From an uncultured Acidobacteriota bacterium (GTDB lineage: Bacteria > Acidobacteriota > Thermoanaerobaculia > Thermoanaerobaculales > Sulfomarinibacteraceae), in assembly GCA_963823445.1 (NCBI GenBank), contig CAWGLT010000015.1, forward strand, positions 70,520 through 134,519: a DNA stretch of 64,000 nt. Reading direction: 5' to 3'. Made by a program: the position numbers and the translations under genes. Each line of letters opens with the position of its first letter. Positions within the stretch are counted from its first letter, which is position 1. Of this stretch, positions 697-40,944 are shown in pieces. Below the pieces are notes generated by a model. That model was given only the letters and a program-made list of their open reading frames with translations. It did not search any database and was not told where the DNA came from.

Positions 697-2240
697 GCAA
701 CCACCTTGGTTATGGCGTCGACCACCGCCGGGTCGAATTGATGGCCGGCCGCACGCTTGAGGATCGCCAGGGCCCGTTCCTGGCTCACCGCCGGACGGTA
801 GCTGTTGGCCGCGGTGAAGAGATCGAAGACCTCAGCCACGTGGACGATGCGTGCGAGAACGGGAATCGCGGTGTTCGCCAACCGGTCGGGGTAGCCGTTT
901 CCGTCCCACCTTTCGTGATGGTGACGCACGGCGTCGGCGATCTCGTCGAAGCCTTCGACCCGGACGATACGGTCGCCGACCTCGACGTGCATGCGGTACG
1001 TGCGGCGATCCTCCGGGCCCGGCGTCGGATGCATATAAAGCCGATCGTAGTCGAGTTCCCGCATGCCGACATCGTGCAGCAGACCGGCCAGGGCCGCATG
1101 TTCCGTGGCGGTCTCGTCGAACTCGAGCACCCGGGCGATGGACCAGCACAGACGCGAGACGCCGAGGGAATGCGCGACGAGTTCCGGATAGCGGCGGTCG
1201 CCGGGTTGCAGCAGCCGCCGGGCGAGCCCGCGTCGGGCAATGCGAAGACAGAATCGTTCCCTCGCCTCGGCGACCTGGGTCCCGAGCCGCTCGACGGCCT
1301 CCCTGGCCACCGCCGGCTCGGCGTCGGCGATGACCGATGCCACCAGGCAGCTGCCGGCGACCCGCAGCAGGACCGCAGACCCGATCACCGGACTCCGGAA
1401 CGAGCCGGCGGGTCCAGCCGTGCGGCGGATCTCGGTCTTCCACGCTTTCGGCGGCGGCGGTGAAACCGACTTCTCGGTCATGGCGTCTATTTGATGCTTG
1501 ATGAGTGGATCAAGCTCGATGCCCGGGGAACCGGCGCGCTGGTGAACCAGGATGGCGGCGGCGGCCGGACTCGCGATACTCAAAGCGATCGCCAGCACGC
1601 GGGGATCGGCGAGCCCGTCTGCGGCGGCGGTGTTGATTTCGTCAAACCCCGGTTCGTCAAGGAGCGCCTCGGACCCATCGCCGGAATCGGCCGGGAGTTC
1701 GACCACCTTCGGCGCCGCCACGACGGTTCCCTCGACCCGGGGCTCTTTTGCGGATTCGTCGGGCGCGGTGTCTCTGATCAACCGGGTCAGACCGACCGCG
1801 ATCGACCGGGAGAGCTCGAGATCGCCGGCAACAAAGGGGCGCTGGCCACCTTTGTCCCGAACATCGATAAAGCCGACCTGGTCGGTTCCGTCGATGACCG
1901 GAACCAGCATCAACCGGGTGGTCCCAGCATCGGCGAGGTAGCCGGCGAGTTCACCGACCTCGTTGAGATCGTTGTAGAACCTGGGGTCCTCTCCGAACGC
2001 GCGCACCATACGTACGAGGGGGTGATCATCGGCAAAGGACTCCGACAACCGATCTCGACGGCCAAAACCGTACTGCGTCGCGAGAGACCAACCCCCGCTC
2101 GACGACTTCAGGTAGAGCGCGGCCTTGGTGGCGTGGACATCCCCCATGAAGCGATACAAGACCTCTTTGAAGGCCCGTTCGGTATCTGGAGTCCAGGGTG
2201 GATGCTGCGCCGTCATGACCTCTCCTCGGTCGGTTTCCAA
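693..2240 (-). CDS. GAF-like sensor / HD-GYP-type metal-dependent phosphohydrolase
   Basis: 515-aa ORF. The C-terminal half carries HD (LLHDVGM) and HHERWDGNGYP motifs typical of HD-GYP domains. The start could instead be the second Met at 2216. Confidence 0.8.
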   Translation of the reverse strand: METDRGEVMTAQHPPWTPDTERAFKEVLYRFMGDVHATKAALYLKSSSGGWSLATQYGFGRRDRLSESFADDHPLVRMVRAFGEDPRFYNDLNEVGELAGYLADAGTTRLMLVPVIDGTDQVGFIDVRDKGGQRPFVAGDLELSRSIAVGLTRLIRDTAPDESAKEPRVEGTVVAAPKVVELPADSGDGSEALLDEPGFDEINTAAADGLADPRVLAIALSIASPAAAAILVHQRAGSPGIELDPLIKHQIDAMTEKSVSPPPPKAWKTEIRRTAGPAGSFRSPVIGSAVLLRVAGSCLVASVIADAEPAVAREAVERLGTQVAEARERFCLRIARRGLARRLLQPGDRRYPELVAHSLGVSRLCWSIARVLEFDETATEHAALAGLLHDVGMRELDYDRLYMHPTPGPEDRRTYRMHVEVGDRIVRVEGFDEIADAVRHHHERWDGNGYPDRLANTAIPVLARIVHVAEVFDLFTAANSYRPAVSQERALAILKRAAGHQFDPAVVDAITKVVA

Positions 2241-2313
2241 TTCTCTACTTTAGTCCACTCCACCGCAATTGGGGTGCTTTTCCAGCTCCGCCCGATGGTA
2301 GAATCGGCCGATC

Positions 2314-2847
2314 ATGCCTTTTGTGCTCGTCGTGATGCTCGCAACGGGAATCGCTCTTCCCGATCCCGTCGCCCTCGAGGTGACCCGGGACCCGGCGACG
2401 GTCGAGATCCGCTTTCGGCTGGTGGAGTCCTTACCGGAGGAAATCTCGGATGCACTCGCATCGAGCGCAGAGGTTCGTTTGACCTATCCGCTTCGGGTCA
2501 GGGCCAAACGGCGGGGATGGTGGGATCGCCGGCTCTGGAGCGGTGAACTGGTGAGTATTTCGACCTTCGACGCCGTCACCGGCCGCTTCCGCTGCCAGGT
2601 CATCCTCAACGGCATCATCACCGCATCCGATGAAGCCGAGACGACCGAAGAGGCGCTCCGGTGGCTGACCAATCCGCCGCCGGTCCGGGTCGAACTCCCG
2701 ACCGAGCGCCGCCAGGCCAACCTGCGGATTCGAGTCCGCGCGGTCTTCTCATCCGGCACCACCTGGCTCATCTTTCCGACGACCGACGCGACTCCCTGGA
2801 GCGAGATCATCCTGGAACCACCTCCCGAGCCCGAGGACGCAGAGTAA
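2314..2847 (+). CDS. DUF4390-like hypothetical protein (partner of NtrY-type kinases)
   Basis: 177-aa ORF with a hydrophobic N-terminus, ending 3 nt before the kinase gene. The family assignment is from memory of the gene-neighbourhood pattern, not from a search. Confidence 0.55.
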   Translation: MPFVLVVMLATGIALPDPVALEVTRDPATVEIRFRLVESLPEEISDALASSAEVRLTYPLRVRAKRRGWWDRRLWSGELVSISTFDAVTGRFRCQVILNGIITASDEAETTEEALRWLTNPPPVRVELPTERRQANLRIRVRAVFSSGTTWLIFPTTDATPWSEIILEPPPEPEDAE

Positions 2848-2850
2848 CCC

Positions 2851-4971
2851 ATGGGCGGCCTGGTCCGCGCCTGGAATCGCCATCGCCGCGAGAACCGGTT
2901 TCTTTTCGGCGCCTTCCTCTTCTTGATGACGCTCACCACCGGGGCCTTCTACCTGCTCCAGCGCGCCCAGAGCGTTTCTCCCGATGAGCTCACCAATCGT
3001 TTGCTGCTCTTTATTCTCTGGTACCTCGATATCTCCCTCATCCTCATCCTGTCATTCGTCATCGTTCGAAACGTCGTCCGCCTGGTCGCGGAGTGGCGGA
3101 GCGGGATCCTCGGCGGCCGGTTTCGGACCAAGCTGGTCCTGACCTATGTCGCCCTGACGTTTGTCCCCGTCATCTTTATTTTTCTCATCGCCACCAACCT
3201 GCTGCAACGCTCCATCGATCGCTGGTTTTCATCCCCCGTCGAGGAGATCCTTCTCGTCGGTTCCGAGGTCACCATCGAAATCCGGAAGGCGGTCGAGGAC
3301 CGACTCTTGGAACAGGTCGCCGTCGCCAGCAACGAGCTCGGGTCGAACCCGGACTCACAGAGCCTCGCCCGTCTTCGAACCCTGCTCAGCGTCGATCTGG
3401 TCGCAATCTACGACGGCCCGGATCTCGTCCAGGCGGTGACCGATCCTCGACGCCTCCCGGCGGCCCTGCCGCCGCTCAATCTCGACGAGCTCCCCGCAAC
3501 CGGCGTCCGCGCCACCCGCTGGCGGACGGTCCTGCTGGTGCGGGCGTGGCGACCCATGGAAGACGGGGTCTCGACCGTCGTCGTCGGCACCACGCTTCCC
3601 CGCCAGTTGCTTCAGCACCTCGATCGCGCCAACGCCGCCCATGTCGAGTTCCAGGAGATGAAACTGGCCCGCGGGATGGTCACCTCGACGACCATCCTCG
3701 TCTTCCTCGCCATCACCCTCCTGCTCCTTTTCGGCACCGTCTGGATCGGGCTCTTTCTCTCGCGCCGGTTCACCGAGCCGTTGCTCGCGGTGGCCGATGC
3801 GACCCGCCGGGTCGCCGGCGGGGACGAGCTTTCCGAGGTCCAGATTCCGGCGACGGATGAGATGGCGGTCCTCGTCGACTCGTTCAACGCCATGGTCCGC
3901 AGGGTTCGGGCCACCGAAGCCGATATCCGCGCATCGGCCAACGAAATGGCCACCCTGCTGGCGACCATCCCGACCGGCGTCCTGACCGTCGATGCCGGCG
4001 GGCGCACCTTTCGACCCAACCCCGCCGCTGCGGCGATGCTGGGTCATCCCGAGTGGGCCGGCGAGTGGCTCGAACTCAGCCGGATCTCCGAACCCGGGCT
4101 CGAGGCGCTCTACACGCCCCTCACCGGCCGTCCGATAAGGGAAACGCGGTTCGAGGCCGATCTCGAGACCGCCGAGGCGATCCTCCACGTCGAGATCACC
4201 ATCACCACCCTGGCTGGTGGAGGGAATGTCGTGGCGATGGACGATCTCACCCAGTTGGCCCGCGCCCAACGCCAGGCCGCATGGAGTGAGGTCGCCCAGC
4301 GGATCGCGCATGAGATCAAGAACCCCCTGACCCCGATCCAGCTCGCCGCGGAACGGATCCACCGCCACGCCGGAAAACTGGACCCGGAGCTCAGCGAGGT
4401 GGTTTCGTCCGGGTGCGACGCCATCGTCACCCAGGTTTCCGGGCTCAAACAGCTCGTGGATTCGTTCCGCGAGTATGCGCGGATGCCGACGGTCCAGCCA
4501 CGTCCCGCTTCGGCCAATCGCATCCTGCGCGAAGTCTGTTCGCTTTACGACGGCGTCCGTGAGGGCCTCGCCATCGAGCTCGACCTGCCCGACGAGGATC
4601 TCGTCGGCATGCTCGATCCGGTCCAGCTCAATCAGGGCCTGGTCAATCTCCTCGACAATTCCATCGCGGCCATTCCCGGCCCGGGAACCATCACGGTTTC
4701 GGCGCGTTCCGAGGGGCTCGATCTCATCGTCACTGTGACCGACACCGGAGTCGGTCTGCCGACCGAGGATACCGAACTGCTGCTGCAGCCCTTTTACTCG
4801 ACCAAGGGCCGCGGGTCCGGCATCGGTCTCGCGGTCGTCCACCGAATCGTCACCGAACACGGCGGTACCCTCAAGATCGCCAACCGAAACCAGGGCGGCG
4901 CCGTCATCACCATCGTGCTGCCGGGGACCCTCATCGGTGAATCGATCGAGCCTGACCTGAAGGATTCATGA
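2851..4971 (+). CDS. NtrY-like sensor histidine kinase (TM-HAMP-PAS-HisKA-HATPase)
   Basis: 706-aa ORF with N-terminal TM segments, H-box HEIKNPLTPI, N-box LLDNSIAA, and G-boxes DTGVGL and GSGIGLAVV. Confidence 0.85.
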   Translation: MGGLVRAWNRHRRENRFLFGAFLFLMTLTTGAFYLLQRAQSVSPDELTNRLLLFILWYLDISLILILSFVIVRNVVRLVAEWRSGILGGRFRTKLVLTYVALTFVPVIFIFLIATNLLQRSIDRWFSSPVEEILLVGSEVTIEIRKAVEDRLLEQVAVASNELGSNPDSQSLARLRTLLSVDLVAIYDGPDLVQAVTDPRRLPAALPPLNLDELPATGVRATRWRTVLLVRAWRPMEDGVSTVVVGTTLPRQLLQHLDRANAAHVEFQEMKLARGMVTSTTILVFLAITLLLLFGTVWIGLFLSRRFTEPLLAVADATRRVAGGDELSEVQIPATDEMAVLVDSFNAMVRRVRATEADIRASANEMATLLATIPTGVLTVDAGGRTFRPNPAAAAMLGHPEWAGEWLELSRISEPGLEALYTPLTGRPIRETRFEADLETAEAILHVEITITTLAGGGNVVAMDDLTQLARAQRQAAWSEVAQRIAHEIKNPLTPIQLAAERIHRHAGKLDPELSEVVSSGCDAIVTQVSGLKQLVDSFREYARMPTVQPRPASANRILREVCSLYDGVREGLAIELDLPDEDLVGMLDPVQLNQGLVNLLDNSIAAIPGPGTITVSARSEGLDLIVTVTDTGVGLPTEDTELLLQPFYSTKGRGSGIGLAVVHRIVTEHGGTLKIANRNQGGAVITIVLPGTLIGESIEPDLKDS

Positions 4972-5031
4972 GGTTTGGTCGAGAGGTCCTCGTTGACCGT
5001 CGGATGACCCCCTTGGTACCATCGTAACGAT

Positions 5032-15616: not shown

Positions 15617-16168
15617 TCACCAGGGTTCGTCACCGGCCCTCCGCAACCTGAGAAGAGCCACCGCATTGATCACGACATGGGCCGCGGCCGCGGCCGGGTA
15701 ACCCCAGACCGCAAAGAGACCCCCGAGGAGAAGCCCGCTGAGGAGGGCAAAGACCGGCCAGAACCAGAGCCGTTTGTCGGGAATGAAGTGAAGGACCGCA
15801 AAAAGGACGGCCGCCGGCACGAGACCGATGACCGGCTGGAGAAAGGCCCGCAACATCGCCTCTTCCGCAAGTCCGGAGACCAATGCCACCGCGACTGCGT
15901 CGGTGACGGTCCACCGCGAGACCACCCCCCGTTGCCACGCCTCGAGACGCTCGAGCGCCGGGGCCTTGCGCAGCAAGAACAACAGGCCGACGCTGGCCGC
16001 CCCGGCCGCGACACCGCCGGCGATGGAACCGAGGAGCGTGGTTGTCGGCGCCAGCGACTCGAGAACACCCCTGTCACCAAACGACAGCCCGATCACCGCG
16101 ATCAAGGCGAGAACGCCTTCCTGGTGAATGAGCGCCACCGCGCGAATCTCGGGCGGGTCGGTCACCAC
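15617..16168 (-). CDS. CPBP family intramembrane glutamic endopeptidase (CAAX protease-like)
   Basis: [11 protein letters not shown] and FAVLHF motifs in a polytopic membrane protein. I chose a GTG start just downstream of the gyrA stop. The long ORF to 16363 overlaps gyrA, so the start is uncertain. Confidence 0.6.
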
Positions 16169-16187
16169 CTCGGCTCCCGGGGGGCGA

Positions 16188-18812
16188 TCAGCTCTCCGCG
16201 CCGGGATCTTCGGTGCCGTCCTCGAAGTCGTCCTCGAGACCTTCGGCGCCGTCGTTTTCGGACGCCTCGTCGGTCGCGGGCTCGACCGCACCGCCCGCCG
16301 GGTCTTCACCGATTTGACTCTCGTCGAACTCGGCGCCGTCAGCGTCGTCGTCGTCGTCAACATTGTCGGCGCCGGCCACCGCGACCGAGACCACGCGGTC
16401 GCCCTCGTCGAGGCGAATGAGACGCACCCCCTGGGTGGCCCTGCCGATGCGGCGGATCTCGGCGATGTTCATCCGGATGAGAATCCCGCCCTCGGTCACG
16501 ATCAGGAGTTGTTCATCCTCGTGGACGTGGTGCATTCCGATGACGTTGCCGTTCTTTTTGGTGAGCTTGATGAGCGCCACGCCGTATCCGCCCCGGCCCT
16601 GGAGCCGGAACTCGGACACCGCCGTTCGTTTGCCGAACCCGAGATCCGTGACGACGAGGATGTCGTGGTCGTCCTCGGGATCGACGATGGCGACCTCTTC
16701 GACAAAGTCGTTCTTGCGGAGGTTGATCCCACGCACGCCGGCCGTGACCCGACCCATGGAGCGGGCGTCGCTTTCGGAAAAGCGGATCCCCATTCCCTGG
16801 TGGGTGCCCATGAAGACCTGGCTGGCGCCGTCGGTGAGCTGCACCGACAGGAGATCATCGCCCTCGTTGATGACCACGGCCCGCAGACCGTTCGATCGGA
16901 TGTTGGAGTAGTCTTTGAGCGGGGTTCGTTTCACCCGACCCATGCGGGTCGCGAAGAAGAGGAACGAATCCGGGTGATCCGAGAAGTCCCTGATCGCGAG
17001 CAACGCAGCGACCCTCTCGCCGCTGTCGAGCTGGAGGAGGTTGACGAGGGCCCGCCCCCTTGCCGCCGGGCCGATGTCGGGGAGCTCATGGACCTTGCGG
17101 GTGAAGACCCGGCCCGATGACGTGAAGAAAAGCATCGTCGCGTGGGTTGACGCGACAAAGAGCTTCCAGACCAGATCCTCGGATTTGGTGGCCATCCCGC
17201 GCCGACCGCGGCCGCCGCGGCGTTGGGCGCGATAGACCGAGACCGCCGATCGTTTGATATAGCCGTCGCGGGACACGGTGATGACCATGTCCTCCTCGGC
17301 GATGAGGTCCTCGATGGACAGATCGCCGAGATCTGCGACGATCTCGGTCCGGCGTTCATCGCCGTACTTCGAGCGGATTTCGGTGAGCTCGTCGACGACG
17401 ATGTCGGCCACCATCGCCTCGGAACCGAGAATCGCCTCGAGGTGCGAAATGGTCTTCTTGAGTTCGGCATACTCCTCGATGATCTTGTCACGCTCGAGAC
17501 CGGTGAGCCGCTGCAGCCGCATGTCGAGAATCGCCTGGGACTGCAGCGCGGAGAGATCGAATGCATCCATGAGGCCGGTCTTCGCCGTCACCGGATCCGC
17601 CGCGGCGCGGATGAGCTTGATGACCTCGTCGAGGTGGTCGAGGGCGATGACGAGACCTTCGAGGATGTGGGCTCTCTCGAGGGCGCGGGCGAGATCGAAT
17701 CGGGTGCGCCGGACCACCACTTCCTTGCGGTGCTCGATGAAGTGTTGGAGGAGCTCCTTGAGATTGAAGATCTTGGGCTGGTTGTTCAGGACTCCGAGGA
17801 GGATGATCCCGAAGGTGGTCTGCATCTGGGTGAGCTTGAAAAGGTTGTTGAGCACCACCTCGGGGATGGCGTCGCGCTTGAGCTCGATCTTCATCCGGAT
17901 GCCGTCGCGGTCGGACTCGTCGCGGAGATCGGCGATGCCTTCGAGGCGCTTGGCCTGGACGAGATTGGCGATCTGCTCGACGAGGCGGGCCTTGTTGACC
18001 TGGTAGGGCAGCTCTTTGACGATGATCGCCGCACGCTTACCCTTTTCGGCTTCCTTGATGATGGCTCGCGCTCGCATCTGAATGATGCCGCGGCCGGTGG
18101 TGTAGGCGTCACGGATCCCCTTGAGGCCGTGGATGAAGCCGGCGGTGGGGAAGTCGGGACCCGGTACGATCTCGAGCAATTTCTCGATCCCGATATTCGG
18201 TTCGCGGACGACGGCGATGGTGGCGTCGATGATCTCGCTGAGATTGTGCGGTGGAATATTGGTGGCCATTCCCACCGCGATCCCCGCCGAACCGTTGACC
18301 AGCAGATTGGGAAACCGTGCCGGAAGGACCGTCGGCTCGCTCATGGAGCCGTCGTAGTTGGGCGCCCAGTCAACGGTCTCCTTCGTGATGTCGTCGCCGA
18401 GCAACTCCTCGGCGAGCCGGGTGAGGCGGACCTCGGTGTAGCGCATGGCCGCGGCTGAATCGCCGTCCACCGATCCGAAGTTGCCCTGTCCGTCGACCAG
18501 GGTGTAGCGCATGGAGAAATCCTGCGCCATCCGAACCGCGGTGTCATAGATCGCCTGATCGCCGTGGGGATGGTACTTACCCATCACATCGCCGACGATA
18601 CGCGCAGATTTTCGATAGGCCTTCGAGGCGGTGCTGCCGCCCTCGAGCATCCCGTAGAGGATCCGTCGGTGGACCGGCTTGAGCCCGTCTCGAACATCGG
18701 GCAGGGCGCGACCGATGATCACCGACATGGCATAGTCGAGATAGGAGCTTCGAAGCTCCTCTTCGATGGTGATCGGGATGCGATCGCCTTCGGGTGCCTT
18801 GTTCTCGCTCAT
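16188..18812 (-). CDS. gyrA: DNA gyrase subunit A
   Basis: 874 aa with [27 protein letters not shown], active-site AAAMRYTE, a C-terminal beta-pinwheel and an acidic tail. Confidence 0.95.
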
Positions 18813-22323
<3,511 letters not shown>

Positions 22324-22370
22324 CGGTCACCTACGCTTGAGACGGAATGGGTTCACCGAGCTCGTCGGAG

Positions 22371-23477
22371 CTACAACCTCATGGGCATGAGGACGTAGAT
22401 GTACTCCTCGAGCCGCGGATCGTCATCGACCGGAACCAAGACGCACTGGGTGTTTCCGTCTTTGAGTTGGAGTTCCACCAGCGGACATTCGAGGGTCTGC
22501 AGGACGTCGATGACGTACTGGGCGTTGAGGGCGATTTCCATGCCGTCACCCTGGTAGCTGACAGAGAGTGTTTCCTCCGCGCTGCCGCGCTCGTAGCCGA
22601 TGGACAACAGGGTGAGTTCACCCGATGGATCAAAACGAAATCGAACCCCTCGCGCCTTCTCGTGAGCCATCAGACTCACCCGACGCAGAGATGCCAAGAA
22701 TTCCTTGCGATCCACTCGCGCTCGAGATGGGTTGTCCCGCACGATGACCCGCTCATACTGCGGGAATCGGAGCTCGACGATCCGCGACACCAGGGTCCGT
22801 TCACCCATCCGGAAGCCGAGATGGTTCTCGCTGGCCGACAGCTCGACGTTCTCGTCCCCGAAGCGGGCGAATTCGGTCAGAAGCTTGCGCGGGAAGAGTT
22901 GCTGCTCGAAGGGGGGCTGACCATCAGGGGCGTTGGCTCGAACCACCGACAGACGATGGCCATCGGTTGCAGCGATCTCAATTTCCCCGGGTAGAAGTTT
23001 CACCAGGGCGCCGTTGAGCTGAAACTTCGGATCGTCCTTGGTAATGGAAAAGGCGACTCGATCGAGCATCAACTGAAAAAGATCCAACGGCAGCGAATAC
23101 TCTCCATTCGGCGGGACATCCGGAATGGTGGGATACTCCGAGGGGTCAGCCACAGCCATTCGCGACTTGAACCGGCCGCTGGTGATCTCGACCGAGTCTC
23201 CGTCGAGCCGAAGGCTGAACTCCTCCTCCGGGAGATTTCGCACGAGTCCTTGAAAAACCCGGCTTTCGAGGGTCACCCGTCCGCCGCCGTGAACCACGGC
23301 GGGACAGTCGGTCATGATCGTCATGTCGAGATCCGTCGCGATCATTCGAAGACGCGCGTCGGCGGTTTCAGCGAGGATGCTGGAAAGAATCGGGATCGTC
23401 GTTCGGTGCTCGACGACCCCCTGGAGAATAGAAAGCTCCTGAAGCACCAGGTTTCGCTGCAGTTTCAGTTCCATCAA
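22371..23477 (-). CDS. dnaN: DNA polymerase III beta sliding clamp
   Basis: 368 aa, three-domain clamp length, C-terminal VLMPMRL, positioned between dnaA and recF. Confidence 0.95.
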   Translation of the reverse strand: MMELKLQRNLVLQELSILQGVVEHRTTIPILSSILAETADARLRMIATDLDMTIMTDCPAVVHGGGRVTLESRVFQGLVRNLPEEEFSLRLDGDSVEITSGRFKSRMAVADPSEYPTIPDVPPNGEYSLPLDLFQLMLDRVAFSITKDDPKFQLNGALVKLLPGEIEIAATDGHRLSVVRANAPDGQPPFEQQLFPRKLLTEFARFGDENVELSASENHLGFRMGERTLVSRIVELRFPQYERVIVRDNPSRARVDRKEFLASLRRVSLMAHEKARGVRFRFDPSGELTLLSIGYERGSAEETLSVSYQGDGMEIALNAQYVIDVLQTLECPLVELQLKDGNTQCVLVPVDDDPRLEEYIYVLMPMRL

Positions 23478-23708
23478 CGCGCCTTTCGACGAAGACTAAG
23501 TATCTAGCAGATGGAAATATAGCATAGTAGATCATCACCGTCGAGACGGTGGAAAATGCGGAAAACAGCGTCAAAATCAGACAACAAAAGGGGATCCCTC
23601 GACTCCCCATCTGTGGATGATTTGTGGGAAGCTGTGGATTCCACAACCATTCCGCAGAGTTCCACATATCCGGTGTTCAGGCTTGTGGAAAACCCGGACG
23701 ACGGTGGG
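23478..23708. other. oriC: probable chromosomal replication origin (oriC) in the dnaA-dnaN spacer
   Basis: 231-nt spacer holding an AT-rich tract (23491-23600) and a cluster of DnaA-box-like 9-mers (23612-23692). Confidence 0.65.
23612..23692. promoter_or_regulatory. cluster of DnaA-box-like sites
   Basis: TGTGGATGA (23612), TGTGGGAA (23623), TGTGGATT-CCACA inverted pair (23633-23645), TTCCACA (23660), TGTGGAAAA (23684). All resemble TTATCCACA or its complement. Confidence 0.6.
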
Positions 23709-24995
23709 TCAGTTGAAGTGTTCGCGGAACGAGGTGAGAGTCGCGTCGAAGTCGGGGTTGGACTGACGCATTTTCGAGATCGCATCCACCGCGTACATCA
23801 CGGTGGAGTGGTGTTTGGAAAAGGTTTTGCCGATTTCGGGAAAACTCAGATCGAGGATCTCGCGGATGAGATACATGGCGACCTGCCGAGGCAGAGCGAT
23901 GGATCGGCGGTTGGAGCGACCCTTGAGATCGGCGACCCGGATTCCATAGTGTTGGGCGACAAAGCGAATGATATCCGACGGCGTCGTTTCTCGTTCATCG
24001 GGGAGCAGTTCGAAGAGCGCCATCCGGACCACGTCGACGGTGATCTTTGCGTTCTTGAGTTGGGCGTAGGCGATGGTTCGATTGAGGCAGCCTTCGAGTT
24101 CGCGAACGTTCTTCTGCACCTTTCGGGAAATAAAGAGAACGGTGTCTTCGGGAAGTTCCCAACCGATGGCCCTGGCCTTTTCCCTGAGAATGGCGCATCG
24201 GGTTTCGAGGTCGGGGGGTTGGATATCGGCGATGAGGCCTTGAAGAAAACGGGATCGCAACCGTTCTTCGAGGCCCGGTATGTCCGCTGGTCGCGCATCG
24301 GAGGTGAAGACCACTTGCCGTCCGGTTGACTGCAGGGTGTTGAAGGTGTGGAAGAACTCTTCCTGGGTCCGTTCCTTGCCGGCGATGAACTGAATATCGT
24401 CGAGGAGGAGAACATCGACACCGCGGAAAGTCTGACGAAAGGCCTCCATCTGTTGTCGTCTGATGCAGTTGATGAGTTCGTTGACGAACTGCTCGGTGGT
24501 CATGTACGCCACCTTGCAATTCGGGTTCGAGGCGAGAACCCGGTGGCCGATGGCGTGCAGGAGGTGGGTTTTACCGAGGCCTGATCCGCCATAGATATAA
24601 AGGGGGTTGTAGGCCTTTCCGGGCCGCTCGGCAACGGCCTCGGCGGCAGCGGCGGCGAATTGGTTGGATGAACCCTGTACAAAGCGCTCGAAAACAAAGC
24701 CGCTGATGAACGGGTAACCGGAAATGGTTGGTCGGACCGGATCGGTCTGAGGCTCGAGACCCTCGGCCGATTCGATACCGACGGTGTACTCGGAACCGAA
24801 ACGGCTGCGGGCGACGGTTTCGATATCGCGCAGGAGATGGTCGCGAACCCATTCGGCGACGATGGCGTTGTCGCACGCGAGAACCAGGGCGCCGGCGGTG
24901 GATTTCTTGACCCCGAGGGGTTCGATCCAGGTGCGGTACTCTTCATCGCCCAACAGTTGTCGGAGGTGTGGTTGAAGCTCCTTCCAGCGGTCCAT
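23709..24995 (-). CDS. dnaA: chromosomal replication initiator protein DnaA
   Basis: 428 aa with Walker A GGSGLGKTHLLHAIG, LLLDDIQF, and the C-terminal DNA-binding signature (FSKHHSTVMYA). Confidence 0.95.
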   Translation of the reverse strand: MDRWKELQPHLRQLLGDEEYRTWIEPLGVKKSTAGALVLACDNAIVAEWVRDHLLRDIETVARSRFGSEYTVGIESAEGLEPQTDPVRPTISGYPFISGFVFERFVQGSSNQFAAAAAEAVAERPGKAYNPLYIYGGSGLGKTHLLHAIGHRVLASNPNCKVAYMTTEQFVNELINCIRRQQMEAFRQTFRGVDVLLLDDIQFIAGKERTQEEFFHTFNTLQSTGRQVVFTSDARPADIPGLEERLRSRFLQGLIADIQPPDLETRCAILREKARAIGWELPEDTVLFISRKVQKNVRELEGCLNRTIAYAQLKNAKITVDVVRMALFELLPDERETTPSDIIRFVAQHYGIRVADLKGRSNRRSIALPRQVAMYLIREILDLSFPEIGKTFSKHHSTVMYAVDAISKMRQSNPDFDATLTSFREHFN

Positions 24996-32429: not shown

Positions 32430-33285
32430 ACAAGCGCTCGGACGAGGCCTCAAGGCCCTCATCCCCGACACCCAGAGGGCGAGGTCCGGGTTGGCGGAAA
32501 TCCCCGTGGATCGTCTCGGCCCGAACCCGGAACAGCCGCGAAAACATTTTGCCGATGACGGCATTGCCGAGCTTGCCGACTCGATCCGACGCCACGGCGT
32601 CCTCCAACCCCTGCTTGTGAGTGAAGACGGCGCCGGCGGGTACCTCGTCATCGCCGGCGAGCGGCGGTGGCGGGCAGCCCGGGCGGCGGGACTCAAGACC
32701 GTGCCGGCGGTGATCCGTGAGCGGCTCGGCGCCCGCGACGAACTCGCGCTGGCGCTCGTGGAGAACCTGCAACGCCGCGATCTGTCGGCTCTCGAAGAGG
32801 CCCGTGCCTTCGAGCATCTCAGGTCCGAACATGGTCTTTCCCAGGCGGAAATCGCCAACCAGGTCGGAATGGACCGGAGCACCATCGCCAACGCCCTCCG
32901 GCTTCTTCGGCTGCCGGAGAAGATCCAGGAAATGGTGGAGGCGGGGCTTCTGAGCGCCGGTCACGGCCGCGCGCTGCTCGCCGTGCCCGATGTCCAGGAC
33001 CAACTCGAATGGGCCGAACGCGCGGCCGCGGAGGGGCTGTCCGTCCGCGATCTCGAGCGGGTTGCGGCTGACGGGAAGAACACGACGACGAAGCGCAGCG
33101 GCACCGAGAAAACGCGGGCAGCGAAGGACCCGAATCTCGTCGCGGCCGAGGAGAAGTTGAGCCTCCGCCTGGGGGCCCCTGTGGAAATCCGGCCCCGCCG
33201 GAACGATGGCGGTGCGATCGTGATCACCTGCGTTGAACCGGACGAGTTGATGCGGGTCTTCGATCTCCTGATGGGGGGTAAGTGA
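32422..33285 (+). CDS. parB: chromosome partitioning protein ParB (Spo0J)
   Basis: 287 aa with GLKALI, ParB box VIAGERRWRAA and ENLQRRDLS. 8-nt overlap with parA. Confidence 0.9.
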   Translation: MAKQALGRGLKALIPDTQRARSGLAEIPVDRLGPNPEQPRKHFADDGIAELADSIRRHGVLQPLLVSEDGAGGYLVIAGERRWRAARAAGLKTVPAVIRERLGARDELALALVENLQRRDLSALEEARAFEHLRSEHGLSQAEIANQVGMDRSTIANALRLLRLPEKIQEMVEAGLLSAGHGRALLAVPDVQDQLEWAERAAAEGLSVRDLERVAADGKNTTTKRSGTEKTRAAKDPNLVAAEEKLSLRLGAPVEIRPRRNDGGAIVITCVEPDELMRVFDLLMGGK

Positions 33286-33665
33286 TGGTGCGTTCAGCAG
33301 AAACGCTCAATGGATTCGTCGACTCGGGTTGCACCATCAAGGGCGAGCTCGAATTTTCGAATTCCTTTCGGGTCGATGGTCTGGTGGAAGGCACGGTTCG
33401 TTCGCGATCCGAGCTCGTCATCGGTGAGGACGGGACCGTCGACGGTGAAATCGACGTCGCCCGCTGTCTTGTCGGCGGCCAGGTCCGGGGAACGATCAAG
33501 GCCAGCGAGAAGGTCGTTCTGCACGCCTCGGCCAAGGTCTTCGGCGAAATCCACGCACCCGCGGTGGTCATGGAGGATGGCGCCTTCCTCGAGGGCAAGG
33601 TCGACATGGCGGCCCGAGCCAAGAAGGCAACACCGCCGGCGAAGGGCGAAGGCGCCAAGGGTTGA
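33285..33665 (+). CDS. bactofilin family cytoskeletal protein
   Basis: About 126 aa with repetitive beta-helix windings (V.G.V....L.IG..G.V.G.I). The ATG overlaps the parB TGA (TGATG). Confidence 0.85.
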   Translation: MVRSAETLNGFVDSGCTIKGELEFSNSFRVDGLVEGTVRSRSELVIGEDGTVDGEIDVARCLVGGQVRGTIKASEKVVLHASAKVFGEIHAPAVVMEDGAFLEGKVDMAARAKKATPPAKGEGAKG

Positions 33666-33720
33666 GAGCAAGGCTGCTGGTCGACGCTGCCGCTGAATCC
33701 TGTCGCTGCCCCGGAACCTG

Positions 33721-33980
33721 CCCTCATCGCCGGCCTTCTGGGCCGCTGTGACGCATTGGCGTCCCGGCGGCCCAGCGTCGCACCATCGGCGTGGTCGCGC
33801 GTGGGTTGATTGAGAGGCTCGGACCACGCCGATGGCGCGCCGGCGGCCTGCCTCGTAGCCGGGAGAGCAGACCGCATCGCGCTCCCCGCGGGAGCCCGGT
33901 CGGCATTTGTGCTGGGCGGGCCGCTCCGCCGAGAGGTCGTTCCGGCACAAATGCGGACCCGGCACCCCGTTGGGGCGGGG
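33721..33980 (+). repeat. structured repeat, full copy A1 (about 250 nt; tail to hairpin orientation arbitrarily called +)
   Basis: Hand alignment of its reverse complement to 40516-40766 gives about 26 mismatches in about 250 nt. It contains the hairpin GCATTTGTGC (33903) / GCACAAATGC (33945). Confidence 0.8.
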
Positions 33981-34060
33981 TTTTTCGGGTTTCCTTGACG
34001 CGCATTGTCTTCGTGCCTCGAGTGAACGCGGTATTGGCCTCGAACGGACGTGCCGTCTCA

Positions 34061-34199
34061 AACCGATTTTGGGATGGCGTACCGTCCCGGAGCGTGACGC
34101 GTTTCGGGCCCAAACATCGTTTGAGGGGGCACTCTCGGGGAGCGCGATGGGAGAATCTCGTTGGAGGCGCGTGCCGGAAGCGGTCCGCCGTGATTGGTT
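34061..34199 (-). repeat. structured repeat, degenerate truncated copy A2 (hairpin module plus CTCGGGGAGCGCGATG)
   Basis: Hairpin arms CGATTTTGGG (34064) / CCCAAACATCG (34109) around a 35-nt loop containing CGGAGCG, followed by CTCGGGGAGCGCGATG as in copy B2. Confidence 0.5.
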
Positions 34200-34262
34200 C
34201 CCTCATCGCCGGCCTTCTGCGCTACCGTGGCCCTCGATGCCGGAACCCGCACCGGCGATGGG
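34200..34262 (+). repeat. structured repeat, tail fragment A3
   Basis: CCCTCATCGCCGGCCTTCTG is identical to the first 20 nt of A1, followed by a diverged continuation. Confidence 0.5.
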
Positions 34263-34364
34263 ACACTTCTATCCTGCATCCTGATCCACGGTCTCTGTAT
34301 CACGCGATTCGCCTCCAGATTCGGCGCCAAACCCAAAGAAAACCGTCCTTGTGAAAAAAAAATC

Positions 34365-34394
34365 TTGACTCTTTGCGAAATCCTGCGGTAATTT
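34365..34394 (+). promoter_or_regulatory. putative sigma70-type promoter of the atp operon
   Basis: A-tract (GTGAAAAAAAAATC), then TTGACT, 18-nt spacer, TAATTT, about 47 nt upstream of the atpF' ATG. Confidence 0.5.
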
Positions 34395-34440
34395 GAGTCG
34401 CCCTGCAAAGAGGCGGGAGTGCCAAGGCCAGGAGCCGCGG

Positions 34441-34872
34441 ATGCAACCTCCGAATTTATCGCTGATCATCGTCATGGTGTGTTTCTGGTTGACCTTTTGG
34501 TTGATCCAGAGATTCCTCCTCAAACCGGTCGGTGCCGTACTCGCCGAACGCCGTGGTCGGATCGAGGGTGCCGAGAAAGAGTGGCAGTCGAAACACCAGG
34601 AATATCTGGCTGAGACGGCTCGCCTCGAAACCGAACTCGGAGAAGCCGCGAAGGCGGCGGCCGCGGTTCGCAACGGGCTCCAGCAGGAGGCCCTCGATCG
34701 GCGCCAGGCAACCCTCGACGCGGCCCGCCAGATCGCCGACGGCAGGCTCGATGAAGCCATGGCGGTGCTCGACAACGAGGCCGCCAAAGCGCGCGCCGAT
34801 CTCAAGGCTCAGGCAGGTGAACTCGCTCGGGCTTTTGCGAGCCAGCTCCTCGGCAGGGAGGTTTCCCGGTGA
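34441..34872 (+). CDS. atpF: F0F1 ATP synthase subunit b' (second b-type stalk subunit)
   Basis: Start at the ATG giving MQPPNLSLIIVMV, with AGGAG upstream. One N-terminal TM helix plus a long charged A/E/R-rich helix. First gene of the operon. Confidence 0.75.
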   Translation: MQPPNLSLIIVMVCFWLTFWLIQRFLLKPVGAVLAERRGRIEGAEKEWQSKHQEYLAETARLETELGEAAKAAAAVRNGLQQEALDRRQATLDAARQIADGRLDEAMAVLDNEAAKARADLKAQAGELARAFASQLLGREVSR

Positions 34873-35447
34873 AGGACAAGCTCTTCTGGGTTCTGGCCTT
34901 TGTTGTCTTCTTGGTTTTGGCCTTCCTCGTCGACGAGCCGCGACAACCTTCGTTTCTCCCCAGCGCTGCGATTCGGGTCCTTCTCGCAGCCAACCTCACG
35001 CTCTTCCTCTTTCTCCTGAACAAATTTGTCGGCCAACCCGTCAACGAGACCCTCAAGGCTCGCGGTGAGGGCGTCAAGGAGGAGCTTGCCGAGGCCCGCA
35101 GGAAGCTCGCCGAGGCAGAGACCCTTCGCTCGGAAGTCAGCGAACGCCTCGCCAGGGTCGAAGCGGAAGTCAAGGAGATTCAAGAACGGGCGGAAGCTCT
35201 CGGCAAGACCGAAGCGGAAAAGATCGACGCCCAGGCTCGCGAAGACGAAGCGAGATTCATGCGCCGCGTCGATGATCAGATTGCTCGCCGTCAGGCCGAA
35301 ACCCGCGAGCAGCTCGCGAAGGACACCGCGGCGTTGACCGAGCAGCTGACCAAAGAACTCCTGCAGGCGACCATGACCGAGAAAGACCAGCAGCGGGTGC
35401 TCGACCGCAGTCTCGGCGCCCTCGAAAACCTCGCGGATAAGGAGTGA
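34869..35447 (+). CDS. atpF: F0F1 ATP synthase subunit b
   Basis: 192 aa. GTGA overlap with the previous gene. TM segment plus an extended coiled helix. Confidence 0.8.
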   Translation: MKDKLFWVLAFVVFLVLAFLVDEPRQPSFLPSAAIRVLLAANLTLFLFLLNKFVGQPVNETLKARGEGVKEELAEARRKLAEAETLRSEVSERLARVEAEVKEIQERAEALGKTEAEKIDAQAREDEARFMRRVDDQIARRQAETREQLAKDTAALTEQLTKELLQATMTEKDQQRVLDRSLGALENLADKE

Positions 35448-40265: not shown

Positions 40266-40289
40266 TTTTCATTGCGAGACTGAAACACC

Positions 40290-40320
40290 AACGGCGCCCT
40301 TCAGGGCGCCGTTTGTTTCG
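40290..40320 (+). terminator. rho-independent terminator of the atp operon
   Basis: AACGGCGCCC-TTCA-GGGCGCCGTT followed by TGTTT. Confidence 0.7.
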
Positions 40321-40515: not shown

Positions 40516-40768
40516 CCCCGCCCCAACGGGGTGCCGGGTCCGCATTTGTGCCGGAACGACCTCTCGGCGGAGCGGCCCACTCAGCACAAATGCCGACCGG
40601 GCTCCCTCGGGGAGCGCGATGAGGTCTGTTGTTCCGGCTACGAGGCAGGCCGCCGGCGTGTCATCGGCGTGGTCGCAGCCCTCCCCGATTCCCCCGCGCG
40701 ACTACGCCGATGGCGCGACGCTGGGTCGCTGGGACGCCAAAGCGTCACAGCGGCCCAGAAGGCCGGTG
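40516..40768 (-). repeat. structured repeat, full copy B2 (inverted relative to A1)
   Basis: About 90% identical to the reverse complement of A1 by hand alignment. Hairpin arms at 40542 and 40584. Confidence 0.8.
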
Positions 40769-40944
40769 CCGAGAACAAGGTCCGGAACAACAGCAGCGAC
40801 GGGGAAAGGGGCCGTATCCGATCCGCGGGCGATAGAACTAACCCGCATCGTTACACCACCAAAGCCGGCAGGACGCCGGCGCTACGAACATCGCAACGCC
40901 CTTTGTCGCACTGCGGGAACGAGGGTCGGTCGCTCTACATGGTT

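Follow-up and report, generated by a model that had tools for sequence, protein, structure and literature searches.

A mosaic of REP/BIME-like intergenic repeats between the bactofilin and atp genes of a marine-sediment Acidobacteriota genome

Is the repeat cluster that separates the bactofilin gene from the atp operon in a marine-sediment Acidobacteriota a purpose-built operon boundary, or does it owe its place to the way its repeats spread? The locus lies in a 64,000-nucleotide stretch of DNA (the window, whose coordinates are used here unless a contig is named) from a 5.2-Mb Thermoanaerobaculia MAG of 23 contigs. This genome is labelled G000, its contigs are C-numbered and its relatives are G001-G011. 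A first-pass annotation described a 775-nt spacer between bactofilin and atpF', holding the second cluster of one repeat family in modules A1 to A3, and proposed that A1 had been co-opted to terminate the long rpmH-to-bactofilin transcript just before the atp promoter. The layout largely stands: the spacer measures 775 nt (33666-34440), A1 is a complete copy of a repeat that we call X, and A3 is an X remnant. The features of the spacer and its borders are as follows.

33282-33665, plus strand: bactofilin gene, last cistron upstream of the spacer (codon-usage gene finder; synteny with atpF' in 15 relatives)
33685-33720, plus strand: GCTG-rich 'pre-X' extension, found with some of the X copies (at least 17 further genomic matches to 33685-33725)
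33721-33995, plus strand: A1, complete X repeat (208 copies or fragments in the genome; fold z = -5.4)
33738-33775, plus strand: hairpin H1 of A1
33776-33842, plus strand: hairpin H2 of A1
33843-33875, plus strand: small hairpin of A1, the fourth hairpin of X
33881-33976/9, plus strand: H3, long hairpin of A1
33907-33950, plus strand: TTGTGC ... GCACAA block inside H3 (at least 97% column conservation; adjacent pairs covary)
33965-33985, plus strand: terminator-like end of A1, a GC stem then TTTTT (sequence scan)
33981-33985, plus strand: T-run of A1, TTTTT
33996-34199, plus strand: A2, a copy of repeat family Z (37 genomic BLAST matches, several without X)
34050-34132, plus strand: weak hairpin of A2 (75% complementary)
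34127-34149, plus strand: A2 box, complementary to the X box at 33875-33897
34200-34219, plus strand: A3, 20-nt start of a second X, its body deleted (20/20 identity to the start of A1; a full X there in G010)
34220-34282, plus strand: segment shared with G010, where it lies downstream of the second X; missing from G001 and more distant relatives
34283-34440, plus strand: ancestral, genus-conserved spacer with the atp promoter (alignment of nine orthologous spacers)
34354-34362, plus strand: A-tract of the atp promoter, 9 nt
34365-34370, plus strand: -35 element of the atp promoter, TTGACT (genus-conserved)
34389-34394, plus strand: -10 element of the atp promoter, TAATTT, 18 nt from the -35 (TAnnnT pattern across the genus)
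34430-34434, plus strand: atp RBS, AGGAG
34441, plus strand: ATG start codon of atpF'

The mosaic is not an assembly artefact, because each of its junctions is spanned by contigs of two metagenome runs at 99-100% identity: bactofilin-X (33000-33745), X-Z (33952-34063) and Z-A3-atp (34146-35000). Read depth is even on the unique flanks (21-25 and 15-18), and the summed depth over X, at 2000-5000, is that expected of a high-copy repeat. The tract is non-coding, since the four long ORFs that overlap the spacer match no Pfam family. One contig of metagenome run X2 joins 33666 directly to 34330, skipping 663 nt, and probably comes from a co-occurring relative without the insert.

X is a 275-nt repeat of high copy number that lies almost entirely between genes. 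BLAST with 33721-33995 returned 289 matches in the genome, which overlap removal reduced to 208 copies or fragments of at least 90 nt in 119 intergenic regions. Ninety-eight of these are near full length, and only 5 of the 208 overlap genes called by a codon-usage gene finder. The unit ends sharply at 5' and 3' across many contexts. A1 had rightly been taken for a full copy, with its 3' end now placed at about 33995 instead of 33980. At least 17 X copies share the pre-X stretch, which reaches 36-41 nt upstream of A1. No terminal inverted repeats join the ends of A1, whose hairpins are all internal, and the consensus ends differ from each other. Our literature searches found no description of the family.

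The hairpins of X are conserved as structures. A1 folds more stably than shuffled sequence on both strands (z = -5.4 on the plus, -3.9 on the minus strand). Across the 98 copies, standard pairs fill 83-94% of cells in the three main hairpins and 81% in the small one at 33843-33875; in a control in which the 3' partner was slid by 1-3 columns, only 29-59% of cells were paired. Many pairs have changed on both sides in compensation (TA/CG, CG/AT/GC and AT/TA, for example). Within H3, TTGTGC (33907-33912) and GCACAA (33945-33950) are invariant while neighbouring pairs covary freely, a pattern that points to recognition by sequence. The acting strand cannot be told from G.T and C.A mismatches, since the strand that they favour varies from hairpin to hairpin. 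The minimum-energy fold closes A1 with a long-range stem (33709-33723 with 33974-33989), which proved not to be conserved across the family and was set aside.

The modules downstream of A1 are a copy of another repeat family and the stump of a second X. A2 had been described as a degenerate hairpin module followed by a conserved CTCGGGGAGCGCGATG block. The block is present at 34127-34149 and is inversely complementary to the X box at 33875-33897 (87% over 23 nt), but the module is no degenerate X: the tract 33996-34199 matches 37 other places, several far from any X, and therefore represents a second family, Z. Its hairpin at 34050-34132 is 75% complementary and folds no better than shuffled sequence (z = -1.2). 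For A3, the reported 20-nt match to the start of A1 is exact (34200-34219 against 33721-33740, 20/20), but the 'diverged tail' after it is what stands behind the full second X of G010. Because homology between G000 and G010 restarts exactly at 34220, A3 is a second X that has lost about 250 nt. Nothing beyond 34229 is repeated elsewhere in the genome. A deletion derivative like A3, at G000:C23:307235, joins two CCCGGC microhomologies.

Judged by the alignment of orthologous spacers, only about 160 nt of the spacer is ancestral, and this part carries the atp promoter. Bactofilin and atpF' are syntenic in 15 relatives of the same family, and from about 34283 to the ATG the genus shares the A-tract, TTGACT, an 18-nt spacer, a TAnnnT -10, the 5' UTR and the RBS. 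The region 34328-34440 is almost invariant across the genus, and the 5' UTR holds a conserved small hairpin; a strict consensus promoter scan does not call this promoter. Upstream of the shared segment the relatives differ.

G001: spacer of 180 nt, no X and no Z
G010: two X copies separated by an unrelated linker, then the homologue of 34220-34440
G006 and G007: one divergent or shortened X each
G003, G008, G009, G004, G005 and G011: spacers of 100-365 nt, no X

That the copies are insertions, as had been predicted, is borne out by this comparison, in which content differs even between sister species. A tree from 2.2 kb of flanking genes gives (G007,(G006,(G010,(G000,G001)))) with support of at least 96%. 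Since G001 is sister to G000, its empty spacer reflects either a loss there or independent gains in the others. Presence/absence polymorphism recurs at two further orthologous sites. X at C4:142133 is common to G000, G001 and G010, and the same gap measures 31-71 nt in G003, G006 and G007; a 621-nt repeat-filled gap at C20:39311 is shrunk in G003 to a few bases between convergent genes. The empty sites of G001, G003, G006 and G007 define no clean empty/filled junction or target-site duplication, because the flanks diverge too fast and sequence next to the stop codon is unalignable between species. A1 itself is up to 95% identical to paralogues in its own genome and 84-87% identical to its positional copies in G010, which suggests turnover or gene conversion in its history.

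Elsewhere X is joined to a third repeat, Y, that leads to a REP system. Several loci on contigs C13, C14, C16, C22 and C23 have head-to-tail arrays in which X alternates with a 148-nt linker, Y, giving a period of 423 nt. From locus to locus Y is 98-100% identical, and X varies mainly in its loops. Y is a repeat in its own right, with 120 matches in the genome, and its core is a GTGG-footed 8-bp palindrome. Arrays of Y-core REPs (foot TTGTGG, period about 43 nt; G000:C5:37900-39200) flank on both sides a 203-aa ORF (G000:C5:38172-38780) that carries an HVH motif and scores 89.8 bits, against a cut-off of 80, with NF047646, the NCBIfam model of the REP-associated tyrosine transposase (RAYT). 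By these sequence criteria the gene and its REPs are a REPtron in the sense of PMC6006769. The TTGTGC/GCACAA block in H3 of X resembles the TTGTGG foot of these REPs.

The link from this transposase to X is indirect. None of the flanks of the genome's 15 Y1_Tnp genes is similar to X, and RAYT-like genes carry their own 26-35-nt REPs on their flanks. G007 and G008 each have an orthologue of the Y-associated RAYT; none was found in X-rich G010 (91% complete), and X-rich G001 has only a 53% paralogue. Across relatives we saw no correlation between this RAYT and X abundance. A genome-wide REP count, taken as TTGTGG plus a hairpin, was rejected: control hexamers satisfy the hairpin criterion in 21.5% of cases, which leaves only a modest real excess (30%), and we dropped the skew bias of these sites because base composition confounds it. 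About 5 kb separate an X array from a group II intron maturase gene (G000:C13:153456-154736; TIGR04416, 403 bits), which X and Y fragments adjoin.

The orientation of X follows GC skew. Between tandem flanking genes, 21 X are co-oriented and 34 opposed, and X is equally common in convergent and divergent gene gaps. Against the sign of GC skew (±40 kb), our proxy for replication direction in a 23-contig MAG, 77 X clusters are concordant and 22 discordant (p = 2.5e-8); the A1-type strand thus usually lies on the G-rich strand, that is, on the lagging-strand template. The same concordance is 35:7 for Y and 13:9 for Z. Genes overall lie on the leading strand in 51% of cases, and genes of the PF05635 family, which recur beside X, are 14:7 on the lagging strand. 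The cumulative skew minimum of the window falls at about 16000-24000, at a GC dip (0.594) just upstream of rpmH; this is likely the replication origin region, and A1, with the minimum near 16-24 kb, agrees with the rule. IS200/IS605 enzymes are known to use the lagging-strand template for excision as well as insertion, and a proposed model for RAYTs involves single-stranded BIME circles (PMC3333891, PMC6006769). A1 (33721-33995) and a minus-strand X after atpC (40522-40775) are inverted to each other and bracket the whole atp operon; the latter is among the minority discordant with skew.

Our preferred reading, which we consider probable, sees in 33685-34282 a lineage-specific mosaic of intergenic repeats that are selfish and depend on their structure (X, Z and a deleted X), with any terminator role a by-product. 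The A1-A3 tract is a real but ordinary instance of an unusual, REP/BIME-like family. Spread and turnover of X-family repeats would take place on the lagging-strand template, with the repeats folded as single-stranded DNA and perhaps mobilised by an HUH/RAYT-type or similar mechanism, and gene conversion and microhomology deletions would then reshape the clusters. The A1 hairpin and its U5 could bring about some termination or 3'-end protection of the rpmH-to-bactofilin transcript, an effect of the element's architecture that two chance substitutions would have sharpened and that would not make it a selected boundary. Several points count against the selfish-repeat reading: no enzyme is tied to X itself, the Y-RAYT orthologue was not found in the two X-rich relatives named above, the flanks yield no clean insertion junction or target-site duplication, the G.T and C.A mismatches in X single out no strand, GC skew is a proxy for replication direction, and the tree leaves either loss or repeated gain to account for the empty G001 spacer.

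Among known systems the closest relatives are the REP/BIME clusters and REPINs of E. coli and Pseudomonas, which are mobilised by RAYT (TnpA-REP) Y1 HUH transposases (PMC3333891, PMC3116915, PMC6006769). Like them, X is high-copy (208), intergenic (119 regions), hairpin-forming and clustered, here in mosaics of X, Y and Z; linkers occur in the clusters, copy number varies between relatives, and the X-bearing genome has a RAYT flanked by Y-core REPs. H3, with TTGTGC facing GCACAA, resembles a double REP foot, and REPs can protect mRNA 3' ends, which we count as a further likeness. X differs from them in several ways. It is 275 nt with three long hairpins, whereas a REP has 20-40 nt and a GTAG/GTGG foot, a design that only the Y core fits. 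X arrays run head-to-tail with a 423-nt period, unlike the alternating inverted REPs of BIMEs. X flanks no Y1 gene, two X-rich relatives yielded no cognate RAYT, and X, unlike REP/BIME elements, brackets a protein gene (PF05635).

Other classes of element share fewer traits with X. IS200/IS605 elements and their gene-less derivatives (PATEs; 'peel and paste') likewise have subterminal hairpins, no terminal inverted repeats and no evident target-site duplication, and X has one strand biased to the lagging-strand template (77:22, by the skew proxy). However, no TnpA or TnpB lies in or beside X, tandem arrays are atypical of the group, and the flanks of the genome's one canonical IS200-like TnpA (C4:348259) are unrelated to X. 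MITE-type repeats with effects at the RNA level include the Correia elements of Neisseria, enterobacterial ERIC/IRU and pneumococcal BOX/RUP (PMC3184786, PMC10969869). X resembles such 100-300-nt repeats in being scattered between genes and co-transcribed, with single copies that may be terminators, processing sites or stabilisers; unlike MITEs, it has no terminal inverted repeats and its orientation tracks replication. For the X family itself, the present data supply direct evidence of presence and absence at orthologous sites, an orientation tied to replication and not to transcription, and a physical link to a REP/RAYT system and to PF05635 genes.

The PF05635 genes raise the possibility that X is part of a larger mobile unit. 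PF05635 (23S-rRNA-intervening-sequence/Avd-like four-helix bundle; TIGR02436) has 21 matches in the genome, 16 of which have X within 1 kb, and every such X lies on the strand opposite the gene; so do all 13 of 13 in three related MAGs. The distance from the stop codon to the opposite-strand X (rcX) is typically 27-33 nt, and the gene sits between co-oriented rcX copies, taking the place that Y or Z has at other loci. It is multi-copy more widely: over 275 loci carry it in MAGs that bear the label Thermoanaerobaculia, Holophagae or Candidatus Sulfomarinibacteraceae. In other Thermoanaerobaculia genera (MAGs CAWDGW01, CAWCLO01, CAVZOK01 and CAVQOJ01) a 124-aa PF05635 gene occurs in 8 to at least 17 copies per genome, inside a discrete 750-1000-nt cassette with flanks unrelated to X. 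Literature searches found no description of mobile PF05635 cassettes.

X might be the structured end-module of an undescribed Thermoanaerobaculia cassette system, an idea that we put forward tentatively and would not expect to hold. Each unit would consist of cargo (a PF05635 gene, REP-bearing Y, or Z) and the 275-nt triple hairpin; it would be copied or excised as ssDNA at replication forks and re-inserted beside existing units, giving head-to-tail arrays at more than 100 loci, with A1-Z-A3 as one decaying array. If this replication-linked cassette reading were true, the X family would count as a gene-associated relative of REP/BIME of unusual size, from a phylum that has been little studied, and would offer a handle on the travelling partners of the function-unassigned PF05635 genes. 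The ORF-bearing intervening sequences of 23S rRNA offer a parallel, in that the X system has a single kind of embedded protein gene, PF05635/TIGR02436, which stands between long hairpins, but the A1-A3 cluster is gene-less and outside rRNA. A link with DGRs, as for Avd, was excluded: the genome's single reverse transcriptase is the group II intron maturase, and no DGR-type enzyme is present.

The end of A1 is, by its sequence, a credible intrinsic terminator. The hairpin end had been proposed to act as a terminator: extended H3 ends at 33976-33979 and TTTTT follows at 33981-33985. This hairpin, at -72 kcal/mol, stops 1-2 nt before the T-run, and because so stable a structure abuts five T's, some termination at A1 is plausible. 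An alternative 6-bp stem (33965-33980) with the T5 also passes our own terminator scan; in the ensemble the long hairpin prevails. The family consensus ends in a small terminal hairpin, CGCGG-TTTT-CCGCG, with the T's in its loop, which two substitutions in A1 have destroyed, freeing the T-run. A1 may terminate transcription measurably, though on these features we lean slightly towards its not doing so. A canonical intrinsic terminator stands elsewhere in the window at 40287-40316, directly after atpC, and the first repeat cluster follows at once; the X cluster at C20:39311 likewise lies just behind a canonical bidirectional terminator.

It is unlikely, in our judgement, that selection keeps A1 as an operon boundary, terminating the rpmH-to-bactofilin transcript and insulating the atp promoter. 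The proposal draws on the strong hairpin with its TTTTT, on the passing 6-bp stem and on the two substitutions that free the T-run; A1 is also one of only 6 among 123 X copies with a T-run of at least 5, follows a co-directional gene at a distance of 56 nt, and in 5 of 5 species that bear X at this spacer it points the same way as the operon. The replication rule predicts that co-orientation equally well, given the position of the locus just to the right of the skew minimum. Family-wide, the orientation of X relative to upstream genes is random (the 21:34 split above), and T-runs are alike in co-oriented and opposed copies, averaging 3.2 behind a co-directional gene and 3.0 in others. The 180-nt spacer of sister species G001 has neither X nor any terminator-like motif, and where X does occupy the orthologous spacer its tail is not comparable: it has no T-run in G006 and G007 and only T3-T4 in G010. 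A consensus promoter and terminator scan of 33500-34600 made no calls, and canonical terminator motifs are rare behind genes in this genome (after 6.7%, against 4.4% on the antisense strand). The locus carries a caution: what looks like a purpose-built boundary between two housekeeping operons is repeat DNA, recent and variable, and it is the atp promoter downstream of the repeats, conserved in the genus, that is the real regulatory element.

X could instead be a family of structured non-coding RNA genes, with H3 and the T-run as the RNA's own terminator and A1 as one copy, but we find this quite unlikely. All three hairpins carry compensatory changes, the consensus 3' end is terminator-like and the 5' end sharp; rcX lies directly 3' of PF05635 genes and is for that reason probably co-transcribed as a 3' UTR. 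Yet no promoter is conserved upstream, where information content is about zero beyond position -8; orientation tracks replication and not adjacent transcription; and about 200 copies with tandem arrays and deletion derivatives are hard to square with RNA genes. Rfam 15 gave nothing in the window at gathering score, and at E <= 10 its best match was a chance miRNA hairpin, with none for X even at E = 10. RNA data weigh weakly in the same direction: one RNA library gave only two contigs, both bactofilin, and no X at 90% likeness or more, and only 8-12% of X words turn up in other RNA runs.

That X is an attC-like site of an integron-type system, with Y, Z and the PF05635 gene as cassettes and a tyrosine recombinase building the arrays, is very improbable: co-oriented X arrays whose inserts are interchangeable (Y of 148 nt, Z of about 200 nt, the gene of about 650 nt), the 27-33 nt from PF05635 stop to rcX, reminiscent of cassette-attC junctions, the replication-linked orientation and an integron integrase in the genome all fit it, but that integron is unrelated to X, X arrays stand at more than 100 loci without integrase or attI nearby, and X (275 nt, three hairpins) falls outside the attC design, a 57-141-nt imperfect palindrome beside intI/attI. 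The chromosomal integron occupies G000:C20:138865-145277. Its intI (TIGR02249; C20:138865-139810) is split by a frameshift at profile position 87 into parts scoring 92.6 and 345.9 bits, and its array, which reaches the contig end, has at least 10 copies of its own 77-nt attC-like repeat between small ORFs. A degenerate X fragment lies just upstream of this intI.
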